This document shows positions 5,650 to 9,991 of a stretch of 64,000 bases of DNA, in pieces (within the stretch, counting starts at the first letter, position 1; the number at the start of each line of letters is the position of its first letter). The stretch covers positions 100,687 through 164,686 of the forward strand of contig CAYLJV010000002.1 of NCBI GenBank assembly GCA_964384105.1, given 5' to 3'. The notes under the pieces are model-generated. The model had not been told where the DNA came from. It saw nothing but the letters and a program-made list of their open reading frames with translations, and did not search any database. This DNA is from Candidatus Hadarchaeota archaeon (lineage in GTDB: Archaea; Hadarchaeota; Hadarchaeia; Hadarchaeales; JAGGTB01). The translations under genes were made by a program, and so were the position numbers.

Positions 5650-5792
5650 TGAACTCCCTCATTCTATTCATCGACTAGATTTAAGTTCTTTTCATTAAAT
5701 AAGACCTTTCACAAATATTAGAAAAAGAGCATCCCGACCATCTCTTATCCGTATTTATAAACAAAGCTGGAAAATGTAGTTTGGTTTTGAAA

Positions 5793-6554
5793 ATGAAGGA
5801 GATAGAGCCAGACCACCCCCGAGCGGAGTCACTTAGAATAAGAAAGAAAATAGCTGAAGGTTTCAAAAAAGAACTAGTAACTCCCGAAGGGCTATCCGCC
5901 CATGGTCGAGGTGAAGCCTTCGACTATCTGCTTGGAGAGAAAACTACAGAATGGGCAAAAAAAGCAATAAGAGCAGGAGCCGCAAAAATACTCCTAGCAA
6001 AAGAGCCAGTTTTTTCTGTGAATGGAAATGTTGCTGCACTAGTTCCAAAAGAAATAGCAAAACTGGAGAAAATAATCGATGTCAAAATCGAAGTCAACCT
6101 TTTTCATAAATCCAAAAATCGAGCGAAGAGAATAGCAAAGCACCTAAAGAAAAATGGTGTTTCTAAAGTACTAGGTATAGATAAAGAACATTACACCTCG
6201 ATTCCCGAAATAAAAAGTCATAGAAAAACAGTCGATAAGAGAGGTATAAAGAAAGCGGATTTGATTCTGGTACCACTAGAAGATGGAGACCGAAGCGAAG
6301 CACTGAAAAAAATAGGAAAAACGATAGTTACAGTAGACCTAAATCCACTATCTCGAACTGCCAAAGCTGCGGACGTTACAATCGTGGACAACGTAGTCAG
6401 GACACTACCAGCGCTGATCAAAGAAATAAATGAACTAAAAGACTACCCCCGAGAAAAACTTGAAGATATTTATGATAATTTTGATAATGAAAAAAATCTG
6501 AAATCTATGATCAAAAATATACTGAATCGATTAGAGGAACTCTCGGGAGTCTAG
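5793..6554 (+). CDS. archaeal phosphopantothenate synthetase (DUF137)
   Basis: HPRAESL, AHGRGEAFDYLLGE, SVNGN, VPLEDGDR, DLNPLSRT, VDN motifs; ATG at 5793 (track starts at 5781). Confidence 0.93.
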   Translation: MKEIEPDHPRAESLRIRKKIAEGFKKELVTPEGLSAHGRGEAFDYLLGEKTTEWAKKAIRAGAAKILLAKEPVFSVNGNVAALVPKEIAKLEKIIDVKIEVNLFHKSKNRAKRIAKHLKKNGVSKVLGIDKEHYTSIPEIKSHRKTVDKRGIKKADLILVPLEDGDRSEALKKIGKTIVTVDLNPLSRTAKAADVTIVDNVVRTLPALIKEINELKDYPREKLEDIYDNFDNEKNLKSMIKNILNRLEELSGV

Positions 6555-9008
6555 TTAATCTTTTTTGGATTCTCTTATCTCTCTAAGAATTCTAGAAGTC
6601 GTCTCCTTTGGATTTGAAGAATTATAGATAGCACTACCTACAACACATATATCTGCTCCTGCCTTTGCTACTTCCTTAGCAACTCCCTCTTTGATACCAC
6701 CAGCAACCGCTAGTTTAAAATCTCCAGCAATTTTCCTAGCTTCGGCCAGCAGCTTTTTCTTTTCATAAATCCCTCGTCCCTTAAGCTGCTCACTGATTCC
6801 CCTATGAATACAGAAAATAACCCGATCTTCATAGCCCTTCAACTCCTTAACAAGTTCACTCAACTTCTCTAAAGGATCAGAACAATCTATAAAATCTATC
6901 AGAATAGCTCCATCACGCTGGACCGACTCACTCAGGGCTTCTGTTATTTTGTTTTTACCCCCAATTGCCAGAACAGCAGAAATATCTGCGCCAGGCCTAA
7001 AAGCAATCCTAGCCTCTAAACCACCAACATCCATCGTCTTGAGATCAGCCAAAATCAAAGCTTCTGGCGCAACTTCCCGTAAAGGAGGAATAAGATTATC
7101 CACTCCATGTCTTTTAATCGCCGGAGTACCCGCCTCGATTATACGTGCGCCTGCCTCATAAGACTGTTCAGCAATCTCACAGATTGTATCTATGTCAGCA
7201 TCCATATCAAGTGCTACCTGAACTTGAGGATAGTTTATCCTATCTAGAGGACTAACGAACACATCTATTTTCTCAAACTTTTTGGGCTCACATAGAGGAA
7301 CACCCTCTATCGGAACACCATTTTCAGCCCACCCTCTCTCCTCATAATACTTTTTCAGCAAATCACCCAGATCAACCTCAAAACCCTCAGGTAACACATC
7401 TTGATCGTAATCAAATCCCTCTCGAGCATTGAAAAGCCGTTCTAAAGTATAGATCCGAGAACCAATTTCTTTAAGATCCTCATTACTCCACTCAAATCCC
7501 GTCAGAGCAGAAAGAAGATTGGCGATATCGTCGAGTTCATAGTCAATCGTTGAAAAGAGAGCAATCCCATGAAATTTGCAAGCAATCATGCTGTCGTAAA
7601 CCGCATAAGCATCCTGCATTTTTTTGACGAGTTCGGGTTTTCCTTCCTCCTTAGCCGGATCAACGAATTCCGGATTACTAATTATTTCGGGTAAGATCGT
7701 AAAGGCTCGCAAATGGCAACCGCCTCTATTAGAAGTGGCATAAGCGAGGGCTATACCTTTAGCCCCTCTAGGATCATAAGCAGGTATTTCAAGTCCCTTG
7801 ACATGAAAGGCTCTATCTTCTTTTCCAAACTCCTCCGCAGCTTTAGCTACTCCCTTCGAAAAGACTGTCTTTCCTTTTCCAATATCTTTGATAAGCTTCT
7901 TAGCTTCCTTCAAGTCAGAAACTTCGCCTACTTCCCTTGCAAAACCAAGAATGTTCCCTACAGAAATGGTATCCAATCCAAATTCTTCACAAAGTTCTGA
8001 CAGAGGCATGATCTCATTTTCGTAATCGTAGAAACCTGAATTTGGGCCGAGCATAGCAACCGATTCATACTCCGGCCCTTTCGTCTCCCCACTACCAATA
8101 TTCACTATTCGTCCACATCCAGTGGGGCAAGCGAAACACGCCTTCTGATCGGTTAGATACTCTTCATAAACCGTCTCCCCCGAAAAAGGATCTACCTGAT
8201 CAAAATCCAACGGTTCACCCGAAAAATTATCCTTCGGAACCATCCCTGCAGCGGTTATCCTATGTACTAAAAGAGAAGTTCCAAATCTCGAGAGAGTCCC
8301 ATCAGAACCGGTTATAGGATTAGTTTTTACGGTCTGCTTAATCTTTTTTAGAACTTTGTTAAATTCTTCCTCGTGGGATATCTCCAAACTATTATTTCCC
8401 CTAACTACAATAGCCTTCAATTTCTTCGATCCCATCACCGCGCCCAAACCACCTCTACCAGCAGCGCGAGTCTCTGAAAGTAAACATGATACATTGACCA
8501 AATTTTCCCCAGCAGGGCCTATCTCAACCACTCTAGAATTCTTATAAGAATCTCTCAAACGCTTCTCAACATCCGAGGTTTTCTTACCCCAAAGCTCCGA
8601 AGCATCCTTCAAAGAAACATCTCCATCGTCGATAAGTAAATACATCGGGCCCTCCGATTTCCCTTCTATAATAACTCCATCAAAGCCTGCCTTCTTTAGG
8701 TACGCTCCAAAAGACCCACCCATAGAGCAGTCAAAAATCGTTCCAGTTAGAGGAGACTTAGAACATATAGATATCCTACCAGCACCAGGAAAAGTGGTTC
8801 CAGTGAGAGGACCGGTCATGAAAATTAATTTATTTTCTTCAGAAAGAGGATCCACATTAGCCTCTAGTTCATCGTAAAGAACACTACATCCGTATCCTCT
8901 ACCACCCAGATAGTTGTATGCTCTCTTTTCATCCAAATTTTCGACTTCAATTTTCTTATCAGCAAGATTAACTCTCAGAACCTTACCTACATATCCACCT
9001 AGTTTCAT
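6555..9008 (-). CDS. fusion of tungsten aldehyde:ferredoxin oxidoreductase (AOR family) and C-terminal 3-hexulose-6-phosphate synthase (HPS/OMPDC-family) domain
   Basis: AOR: GRGGLGAVMGSK, CFACPTGC, GPEYES, GLDTIS, VKGLEIPAYDPR, RGGCHL, DSMIAC. HPS (about 6555-7230): QVALD, IEAGTP, ADLKTMD, HRG, VAGGI, VVGSAI. One uninterrupted frame; ATG at 9008. Confidence 0.92.
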   Translation of the reverse strand: MKLGGYVGKVLRVNLADKKIEVENLDEKRAYNYLGGRGYGCSVLYDELEANVDPLSEENKLIFMTGPLTGTTFPGAGRISICSKSPLTGTIFDCSMGGSFGAYLKKAGFDGVIIEGKSEGPMYLLIDDGDVSLKDASELWGKKTSDVEKRLRDSYKNSRVVEIGPAGENLVNVSCLLSETRAAGRGGLGAVMGSKKLKAIVVRGNNSLEISHEEEFNKVLKKIKQTVKTNPITGSDGTLSRFGTSLLVHRITAAGMVPKDNFSGEPLDFDQVDPFSGETVYEEYLTDQKACFACPTGCGRIVNIGSGETKGPEYESVAMLGPNSGFYDYENEIMPLSELCEEFGLDTISVGNILGFAREVGEVSDLKEAKKLIKDIGKGKTVFSKGVAKAAEEFGKEDRAFHVKGLEIPAYDPRGAKGIALAYATSNRGGCHLRAFTILPEIISNPEFVDPAKEEGKPELVKKMQDAYAVYDSMIACKFHGIALFSTIDYELDDIANLLSALTGFEWSNEDLKEIGSRIYTLERLFNAREGFDYDQDVLPEGFEVDLGDLLKKYYEERGWAENGVPIEGVPLCEPKKFEKIDVFVSPLDRINYPQVQVALDMDADIDTICEIAEQSYEAGARIIEAGTPAIKRHGVDNLIPPLREVAPEALILADLKTMDVGGLEARIAFRPGADISAVLAIGGKNKITEALSESVQRDGAILIDFIDCSDPLEKLSELVKELKGYEDRVIFCIHRGISEQLKGRGIYEKKKLLAEARKIAGDFKLAVAGGIKEGVAKEVAKAGADICVVGSAIYNSSNPKETTSRILREIRESKKD

Positions 9009-9142
9009 TTGAAGACCATCTCTATTGATAAAATAACCCAATAAATAATTATTATTCTACTAATAAACTCTGAGTCTCTATATTGGCAATACTTTAAGAG
9101 CTGAAAAGAGTTGAGTAAAAAACAGACAAAAGGTTACCCAAA

Positions 9143-9991
9143 ATGAATAAAGATAAGATAACAGTACAAAATTTCCAAAAAATGAAGGAAAATAAAGAAA
9201 AAATCTCAATGTTAACTGCTTACGATTATCCAACAGCAAAGTTAATCGAAGAATCAAATATAGAAGCAGTTTTGGTAGGCGATTCACTGGGAAATATAAT
9301 TCTGGGCTATAAAAACACCCTTCCTGTAACTCTAGAGGACATATTGCATCACACAAAAGCCGTAGCAAGAGGGATAGACCATTCCATGCTAATCGCAGAT
9401 ATGCCTTTTAACTCGTACCAAAGCAGTACAGAAGAGGCTATAAAAAACGCTGGTAAACTCATAAAGGAGGGAAATGCCGAAGCAATCAAGATAGAAGGAG
9501 GAAAAGAATCCCTTAAACAGATAAAAGGAATTTTAGAAACCGGCATCCCTGTAATGGGACATTTAGGCTTAACACCCCAAAAAATACTCCAGTTTGGGGA
9601 ATACAAAGTTCGAGGAAAAACAGGAAAAGAAGCCTATAGGATTTTTGAAGAAGCCAAAATGCTGGAGGAAGCTGGTGTGTTCAGCCTAGTTTTAGAAGCT
9701 ATACCCTGGGAACTAGGAGAAATAATAACCAAAAACCTTGAAATTCCTACTATTGGAATCGGTGCAGGTCCACACTGTGACGGTCAAATATTGGTTCTTC
9801 ATGACATTTTAGGACTTAGCAGTTTTTCTCCAAAATTTGCCAAAAAATACGCAGATTTAAATTCATCAATAAAGAAAGCTGTTAAAAATTTCTCAGAAGA
9901 AGTAAAAGATAAAAAATTCCCAGATTCAAAACACACATACAGTATGAAAGAAGAAGAATTCAAGAAATTTAAAGAATTGATCAAAAAATAG
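9143..9991 (+). CDS. panB: ketopantoate hydroxymethyltransferase
   Basis: MLTAYD, LVGDSLG, ADMPF, KIEGG, GHLGLTPQ, IGIGAG..CDGQILV.HD. Confidence 0.97.
   Translation: MNKDKITVQNFQKMKENKEKISMLTAYDYPTAKLIEESNIEAVLVGDSLGNIILGYKNTLPVTLEDILHHTKAVARGIDHSMLIADMPFNSYQSSTEEAIKNAGKLIKEGNAEAIKIEGGKESLKQIKGILETGIPVMGHLGLTPQKILQFGEYKVRGKTGKEAYRIFEEAKMLEEAGVFSLVLEAIPWELGEIITKNLEIPTIGIGAGPHCDGQILVLHDILGLSSFSPKFAKKYADLNSSIKKAVKNFSEEVKDKKFPDSKHTYSMKEEEFKKFKELIKK

Follow-up and report, generated by a model that had tools for sequence, protein, structure and literature searches.

Many archaea that lack the pentose-phosphate pathway make ribose by running the ribulose monophosphate (RuMP) pathway in reverse, which yields one formaldehyde per pentose. 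Methanogens trap this formaldehyde with Fae-HPS, a fusion of HPS (3-hexulose-6-phosphate synthase) to Fae whose bifunctional biochemistry was reportedly worked out by Goenrich et al. in 2005, and Thermococcales have an HPS-PHI fusion whose physiology is said to have been described by Orita et al. in 2006. We analyzed a 64,000-nucleotide stretch of a Candidatus Hadarchaeota archaeon genome (contig CAYLJV010000002.1, positions 100,687 to 164,686), hereafter the window, in which one minus-strand gene encodes an aldehyde:ferredoxin oxidoreductase (AOR) module, a short arm and an HPS-like barrel. We propose, with moderate confidence, that this AOR-HPS fusion is a bifunctional enzyme of the reverse RuMP pathway, in which the barrel would carry out the cleavage and the tethered AOR would oxidize the formaldehyde to formate with ferredoxin as acceptor.

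Fae-HPS (NCBIfam NF009833) likewise couples HPS to a partner that removes or provides formaldehyde, and serves pentose synthesis by reverse RuMP. Its Fae half, however, condenses formaldehyde with tetrahydromethanopterin, depends on a one-carbon (C1) carrier and involves no redox step, whereas AOR-HPS has an N-terminal tungsten-pterin/[4Fe-4S] oxidoreductase of about 570 residues and is expected to yield formate and reduced ferredoxin. The two would be functionally analogous. HPS-PHI (9lj9) is the best solved relative of our barrel (100 bits; Foldseek rank 10) and has the same role in replacing the pentose-phosphate pathway, but there HPS is fused to the next enzyme of the pathway and formaldehyde is left unhandled, while here PHI is separate and the fusion partner would act on the by-product. 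Stand-alone AORs (1aor, 9g7j) and the FOR 1b25 share with our N-terminal module the same two Pfam domains, the cluster ligands and the catalytic Glu and His. They are single-function proteins of about 600-620 residues, whereas the window module is without a 13-residue loop and continues into arm and barrel. Among the known models of HPS fusions, only the HPS halves match our protein (positions 171-381 of 392 in NF009833, 4-213 of 391 in NF041755 and 3-214 of 430 in NF005442), so it is not a fusion of the Fae-HPS, HPS-PHI or HPS-RraA-like kind. The nearest published statement, in a passage of PMC8065059, suggests that a separate AFOR might oxidize formaldehyde beside RuMP in Brockarchaeota. Fae-HPS is mentioned in a passage of PMC6946796. 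Full-text literature searches, with subscription journals and supplements outside their scope, found no description of an AOR-HPS fusion, in agreement with a sequence-only reading of the window that knew of none. An HPS fused to a formaldehyde-handling partner is already known as Fae-HPS; by analogy, the new element would be a partner that handles formaldehyde by redox chemistry.

Both AFOR domains exceed their gathering scores with near-full profile cover (AFOR_N 274 bits, cutoff 29.8; AFOR_C 326 bits, cutoff 27, profile 1-376 of 385), which places the module in the tungsten aldehyde:ferredoxin oxidoreductase family. An OMPdecase match, likewise far beyond its gathering score, follows in the same frame, bearing out the single-frame AOR plus HPS-type barrel that the sequence-only reading had described. 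Every motif it named occurs in the translation (CFACPTGC, GRGGLGAVMGSK, EYE, DPRG, GGCHL, QVALD, EAGTP, DLKTMD, AGGI and VGSAI), and its distal Cys is C477 (in DSMIAC). A search with the barrel region, confined to candidates of 449-1430 aa, gave 268 proteins, and most of the best 120 of these 268 carry AFOR_N, AFOR_C and OMPdecase. Counting as full-length those in which at least 480 aa of the AOR and at least 180 aa of the barrel are covered, we collected at least 93 fusions from the pooled proteins of three homologue searches; these 93 comprise 67 of the window type (at least 44% barrel identity) and 26 of a second, Asgard type. Scanning a single genome of each GTDB species for the pattern returned 36 loci, 22 of them with one continuous frame of 820-947 codons. 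The continuous-frame records are named Hadarchaeota, Hadarchaeum, Hadarchaeales or Bathyarchaeia/Bathyarchaeota, with one each of 'Hodarchaeaceae', 'Thermoproteaceae' and Thaumarchaeota. The other loci are three cut by a contig end with the AOR tail in frame, one interrupted by a scaffold gap, four with abutting split genes, three stand-alone barrels, two canonical HPS (about 34% identity) and one that is unclear. An apparent frameshift at the gapped locus (L046) was rejected, as the run of N there is the scaffold gap. The architecture is thus widespread, and since it recurs and its Pfam E-values are strong, chance is excluded.

An assembly artefact or a private stop-loss could also join two neighbouring genes, and the sequence-only reading had seen this risk at 7230-7330. 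What speaks for it is the prior possibility alone in an assembly of 12 contigs. The same frame, however, recurs in those 22 of 36 GTDB loci and, at 800 aa or more, in 19 of the 66 genomes surveyed from the phylum. Two further samples, of the presumed source study, yielded contigs on 7056-7409 and 7232-7581 that bridge the junction with 0 differences and span both linker boundaries (7229/7230 and 7307/7308). We give this explanation next to no probability, and both misassembly and private stop-loss are refuted. A sequencing run of another study holds pieces 90-99% similar to the gene. One metatranscriptome run has contigs at 7486-7681 (with 6 differences) and at 8813-9009 (with 4 differences); they represent a close relative in the RNA library and were rejected as a sign of transcription of this gene. 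The runs compared over window positions 6400-9200 (X1-X11) bear the labels microbial mat, brine, salt lake, microbialite and freshwater sediment, and gaps in contig cover over parts of the gene in X2, X3, X5 and X9 are not informative. The segment 8413-8450, which encodes the conserved GRGG..GAVMGSK part of AOR genes, draws high-depth contigs of other organisms.

The barrel lies nearest to HPS, as the sequence-only reading had it, both by bits and by fold. Against solved structures it scores 100, 84 and 72 bits with HPS, 40 with OMPDC and 34 with KGPDC; the Foldseek order likewise puts HPS ahead of OMPDC and KGPDC, and profile scores are 134 bits for HxlA, 50 for KGPDC and 39 for PyrF. The strand-1 Asp, the Glu of EAGTP, the DxKxxD motif and the strand-6 His align with 9lj9 and 3ajx; we take these to be the metal-binding and catalytic residues of the suprafamily. 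All 37 full-length fusions compared share D601, E625, D655, K657, D660 and H735; G770-G771 is invariant too. One relative, P0070 (617 aa), carries a window-type barrel (395-608) after about 390 residues with a CxxCxxCC motif and no Pfam match, and in the barrel tree forms a long branch basal to the fused clade.

Two genes of the OMPdecase fold are present in this genome (1.62 Mb, 90.2% complete): one is the fusion, the other a gene of 240 aa that lies between open reading frames (ORFs) resembling pyrI and pyrE and passes the PyrF model (224 bits, cutoff 208). The fused barrel is therefore the only HPS candidate. A stand-alone, unlinked PHI (204 bits, cutoff 160) and RpiA are present, while Fae and transketolase were not found at this completeness. 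Given these presences and absences, the only visible route to pentoses leads from fructose 6-phosphate through hexulose 6-phosphate to ribulose 5-phosphate and formaldehyde. In the mechanism we propose, the separately encoded PHI would turn fructose 6-phosphate into hexulose 6-phosphate, the C-terminal barrel would split the latter into ribulose 5-phosphate and formaldehyde (the HPS reaction in reverse), and RpiA would make ribose 5-phosphate from ribulose 5-phosphate. The tungsten-pterin/[4Fe-4S] AOR module, kept against the barrel by the arm, would oxidize the formaldehyde to formate and pass two electrons to ferredoxin. This would remove a toxic product and pull an unfavourable cleavage forward with no C1 carrier. 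We infer both activities, the direction of flux, formaldehyde as the substrate of the AOR and ferredoxin as its acceptor.

The distribution of these genes was surveyed in 66 species genomes of the phylum, tabulated by hand. The window-type barrel occurs in 26 of them (19 with frames of 800 aa or more, 1 truncated at the end of a contig, 1 broken and 5 short) and is the sole HPS-like gene in 24. PHI, not adjacent to the fusion, accompanies it in 24 of the 26 genomes, the two without PHI being 70% and 88% complete, versus 5 of the 28 genomes without HPS. Transketolase shows 3 of 26 and 19 of 28, respectively. The 12 genomes with only another HPS include 10 with PHI and 0 with transketolase. Seven genomes (G003, G004, G006, G030, G044, G045 and G046) encode proteins of about 550-710 aa that match positions ~5-250 of the 334-position Transketolase_N at 133-160 bits; these partial matches, unlike the split archaeal transketolase subunits of about 290 aa in other genomes, were not counted as transketolase. 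Seven of the 66 genomes contain Fae, in every case as Fae-HPS; only one of these belongs to the 21 genomes with the fusion. Within the window's genus, Fae-HPS belongs to species without the AOR fusion: the fusion without Fae occurs in two species, canonical HPS together with Fae-HPS but without the fusion in four, and a short barrel alongside Fae-HPS in one. Such a distribution would be expected if these were alternative pentose routes and alternative HPS-attached formaldehyde sinks. Together with PHI and RpiA, the lack of Fae or a second HPS in the genome, and this either/or with Fae-HPS at genus level, it lends in silico support to the same-polypeptide formaldehyde sink put forward in the sequence-only reading.

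The AOR module looks competent from its conserved cluster, catalytic residues and fold. Its predicted fold reaches a TM score of 0.89 (target-normalized) to solved AORs. Residue positions were counted on the alignment to Pyrococcus furiosus AOR, in which C291, C294, C298 and C477 correspond to Cys288, Cys291, Cys295 and Cys494, the last ungapped; E315 (EYE) corresponds to Glu313 and H432 (GGCH) to His448, and the equivalent of Asp489 is also kept. We take the four Cys to be the [4Fe-4S] ligands, Glu313 and His448 to belong to the active site and Asp489 to contact the pterin. All of these positions are invariant in 37 of 37 full-length fusions; substitutions in the window protein are Asp338 to Glu and Lys450 to Arg. 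A conserved loop, 'EEPxPxGPxxG', shows a 13-residue deletion in 13 of 13 window-type fused representatives. None of 9 Asgard-type fusions and none of 6 paralogues from the same genome have this deletion, while 9 of 143 stand-alone AORs do. When sequences are clustered at 50%, no stand-alone AOR exceeds 46% identity to the window module, versus 55-57% inside the fused clade. Such a clade-specific deletion, and the loss of the module in some lineages, would fit a non-catalytic scaffold or redox sensor on a working HPS. We hold this to be very improbable: the cluster Cys, the catalytic Glu and His and the pterin-contacting Asp do not vary, and the mean column identity of about 69% in the module points to purifying selection on a full-length enzyme.

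An origin of the module from the genome's own AOR paralogues was considered and rejected: of eight stand-alone paralogues, the tree included six, and none of these falls close to the module; one with two stops and one without a locus were left out. The genome has nine AFOR_C matches, a large AOR-family complement for 1.6 Mb. One of them, outside the window at G000:C1:371897-372997 (-), is interrupted by one TGA and one TAA in frame, which makes it a probable pseudogene.

In four Bathyarchaeia species (L041, L042, L044 and L048) AOR and barrel are encoded by abutting genes. The AOR gene ends in '...RGW(I/V)' and a TAG or TGA stop; the start codon of the barrel gene (GTG, ATG or TTG) comes directly after it without a change of frame, and the barrel proteins retain an arm of about 40 residues. 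Selenocysteine or pyrrolysine recoding of the in-frame stop was considered and rejected, as two of the loci use TAG and the other two TGA; a start codon directly after each stop and a purine-rich motif upstream further rule it out. By their layout the split forms are abutting, translationally coupled genes. We predicted the complex of the L041 pair with our own 27-row alignments for each module. The pair docked with ipSAE interface scores of 0.85, 0.86 and 0.86 versus 0.00 for the best of 3 controls, a mark that 58 of 80 solved complexes but just 2 of 110 mismatched pairs attained, counts that are only rough given our own alignments. The docking runs share at least 95% of contacts, with a partner predicted local distance difference test (pLDDT) score of at least 86. 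Foldseek found no solved chain that holds both modules, so this result is unlikely to reflect a similar complex known to the predictor. In the split barrel protein, arm residues 1-25 account for the majority of the predicted contacts; they rest on AOR residues 28-33, 212-230 and 501-562, beside the site of the loop deletion. In the full-length model of the window protein (mean pLDDT 92.5, predicted TM score 0.89) the linker has a pLDDT of 76-86. Enzymes of both parent families are dimers.

The 26 Asgard-type fusions come from sources named Hodarchaeales, Heimdallarchaeota, Thorarchaeota and Promethearchaeota. Their domains follow one another as in the window protein; they have about 807-839 aa and are metagenome-assembled genome (MAG) entries auto-named '3-hexulose-6-phosphate synthase'. 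Unlike the window type, their barrels nest among canonical HPS and share 35-41% identity with the window barrel, and their AOR loop is kept. All seven Asgard-type barrels tested exceed the HxlA cutoff (201-283 versus 200 bits), so AOR is also fused to canonical HPS. Two Asgard-type relatives, P0244 (992 aa; HxlA 283 bits) and P0072 (989 aa), contain AOR and two OMPdecase/HPS stretches by Pfam and HxlA, which suggests a variant of AOR plus tandem barrels. The barrel tree sets the two fusion types apart. In an approximately unbiased (AU) test, however, one clade of all fused-type barrels is not rejected (p 0.58), the constrained tree being 9.5 log-likelihood units better. A FastTree of 171 AOR modules (243 rows minus 72 at least 62% identical to a kept row) separates the types on weak branches, whereas in a maximum-likelihood (ML) tree of 66 modules a single branch, with weak support of 48, parts all 22 fused rows from the others. 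Given the AU result and the ML grouping, we do not claim a convergent origin. Beyond our proposal, AOR-HPS might be an ancient single-origin machine of Hadarchaeota, Bathyarchaeia/Thermoproteota and Asgard archaea (the latter being relatives of eukaryotes), their main carrier-free answer to formaldehyde, reversible in vivo with low-potential ferredoxin driving formate into sugar phosphates. We regard this as a long shot; if true, it would be a new tungsten-dependent C1 entry into central carbon metabolism. A Hadarchaeota-type fusion also lies in an Asgard-labelled MAG recorded as Candidatus Hodarchaeaceae (L036, match 8001-8708). It shares 68% barrel and 64% AOR identity with the window protein, has other neighbours including KH-domain and archease genes, and could be a horizontal transfer or a mis-binned contig.

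Several observations weigh against AOR-HPS as a formaldehyde-coupled reverse-RuMP enzyme. The genomes surveyed include related ones that are not independent, and transketolase occurs in three of those with the barrel. The barrel's score on TIGR03128 RuMP_HxlA (138 bits on the genome) is below the curated cutoff of 200, as are those of window-type solo barrels (143-145 bits), and by the curated definition the barrel is a non-member. In the barrel tree it belongs to a separate clade of 28 rows on a long stem (SH-aLRT 100), and because of this branch and the sub-cutoff score its specificity may have changed. The oxidoreductase, in turn, is by its scores AOR-like, not FOR-like: end to end it matches P. 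furiosus AOR (1aor) at 425 bits, 9mqx at 415 and 9g7j at 398, versus 302 bits for P. furiosus FOR (1b25), which Foldseek ranks fifth, and 174 for WOR5; our trees contained no named reference sequences. In the docked model the barrel proper touches the AOR only through the helix and loop residues 141, 144-145, 173-174 and 176, which, judged by the topology of TIM barrels, appear to lie at its bottom or side and not at the catalytic face. The model thus supports a specific, arm-mediated assembly and not a sealed tunnel; the strict channelling of the sequence-only reading is not borne out by it, and capture by proximity appears more likely. Finally, five of the 26 genomes with the barrel, those with the short form, carry no window-type AOR: an AOR search gave no match at 1e-50 in two and best identities of 36-47% in three. 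Three short proteins (P0122, P0125 and P0127; 272-276 aa) consist of about 25 residues of an AFOR_N start ('GGYTGKLLRV...') joined to arm and barrel, and seem to have arisen when a fused ancestor lost its whole AOR body in frame. As such derivatives and solo barrels exist, the AOR module is a dispensable add-on and the barrel the indispensable part.

Formaldehyde nevertheless stays a possible substrate of an AOR-like module, because the Thermoanaerobacter X514 AOR, an AOR-clade enzyme, oxidizes it with a Km of 93 uM and a Vmax of 25 U/mg according to Table 2 of PMC10816221. A passage of the same source, again on the side of doubt, has the AOR-clade enzyme favour acetaldehyde over formaldehyde. 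The deviating barrel, a module of the broad-specificity type, a model without a tunnel and the five genomes without the AOR would all suit two active modules with no formaldehyde link between them. The barrel could then cleave or decarboxylate another sugar phosphate and release another aldehyde, or the AOR could be a general scavenger fused for co-expression. This would, however, leave PHI without an HPS in 24 of 26 genomes. The catalytic residues common with solved HPS do not vary, and the Asgard-type fusions pair AOR with canonical HPS. Replacement by Fae-HPS inside the genus points specifically to formaldehyde, and the conserved docking arm and the split-gene pairs favour a specific partnership. 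Overall, we consider uncoupled modules unlikely.

The fate of the product also speaks against formate formation. In the genome, at the completeness given above, we found no FdhA above cutoff (best 77-92 bits versus 666), no FTHFS (formate-tetrahydrofolate ligase) and no FocA, so formate has no identified sink. The sole weak formate-dehydrogenase-like match (G000:C5:18105-19259 (-); L052:955-2850) is a 631-aa NuoG/HoxU-like protein of iron-sulfur/molybdopterin fold with 258 bits to NuoG, below the NuoG cutoff. HPS is freely reversible and favours condensation. With no formate-consuming enzyme found, formate may itself be the substrate: the AOR could reduce it with low-potential ferredoxin and the barrel could at once condense the formaldehyde with ribulose 5-phosphate, which would pull the unfavourable reduction, so that formate is fixed into hexose or salvaged pentose is turned into hexose. 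A fusion would suit either direction equally, and AORs can reduce acids, as stated in PMC10816221. Assimilation by the RuMP cycle, on the other hand, requires ribulose 5-phosphate to be regenerated by transketolase, which was not found here and occurs in 3 of 26 genomes with the barrel. No other pentose route was detected, so the pathway must run towards pentoses for nucleotides, and no formate channel was found in the genome. We therefore judge the assimilatory direction quite unlikely and retain formaldehyde oxidation as the preferred reading.

The features of the gene and its flanks are listed in Table 1. The minus-strand ORF, 6555..9041 (-), would give 828 aa if started at TTG. We placed the start at the ATG, which gives an N-terminus of MKLGGYVGK, because the N-termini of homologues match there; the interval 6555-9008 named in the sequence-only reading is thus exact and includes the stop codon. 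Its linker of about 30 aa is present, the length being 26 aa.

Table 1. Features of the AOR-HPS gene and its neighbours (window coordinates)
Feature	Position	Strand	Remarks
AOR-HPS fusion protein (P0001), whole gene	6555..9008	-	817 codons from ATG 9008, stop 6555-6557
AFOR_N domain, residues 8-204	8397..8987	-	PF02730, E 7.7e-82, profile 1-198/199
AFOR_C domains 2 and 3, residues 218-567	7308..8357	-	Pfam E 5.3e-97; holds E315, H432, D472, C477
CxxCxxxC motif (C291, C294, C298), three of the four presumed [4Fe-4S] ligands	8115..8138	-	Aligns with P. furiosus AOR Cys288, Cys291, Cys295
13-residue AOR loop deletion site (F543/E544)	7377..7382	-	Alignment of 'EEPxPxGPxxG' loop
Linker/docking arm, residues 568-593	7230..7307	-	Basic patch, then nearly invariant 'SPLxRIxxPQ' into barrel strand 1
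HPS-like OMPdecase-fold TIM barrel, residues 594-817	6558..7229	-	Pfam OMPdecase at 594-806, E 1.9e-22
Phosphopantothenate synthetase (PPS_PS), convergent neighbour	5781..6554	+	Pfam; housekeeping gene, no pathway partner
PanB-like ORF, divergent neighbour	9143..9991	+	Assigned by reading the translation by eye

The fusion sits between two coenzyme-A biosynthesis genes with no apparent functional link to it. In the ORF clusters of 35 loci no functional neighbour (ferredoxin, PHI or a C1 gene) was found; the recurrent neighbours are housekeeping genes, namely PanB-like (15 loci), aIF5A-like (12), NAD-kinase-like (10), Topo VI A and B (10 each) and phosphopantothenate synthetase.

Databases auto-name such proteins 'OMP decarboxylase/HUMPS family', 'aldehyde:ferredoxin oxidoreductase' or '3-keto-L-gulonate-6-phosphate decarboxylase'. 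These names hide what would be the genomes' only HPS, so that the pentose pathway would be scored as missing. As a 'Rosetta-stone' clue, the conserved fusion ties the two activities to each other, and the idea is directly testable with one recombinant protein. A compact formaldehyde-to-formate module, or its reverse, may also serve the engineering of C1 pathways. For the hosts, which are abundant uncultured lineages of subsurface and sediment and Asgard archaea, the enzyme would recover two low-potential electrons per pentose. Formaldehyde disposal in non-methanogens has been a loose end of the reverse RuMP pathway, and the fusion suggests how many archaea may cope with it.

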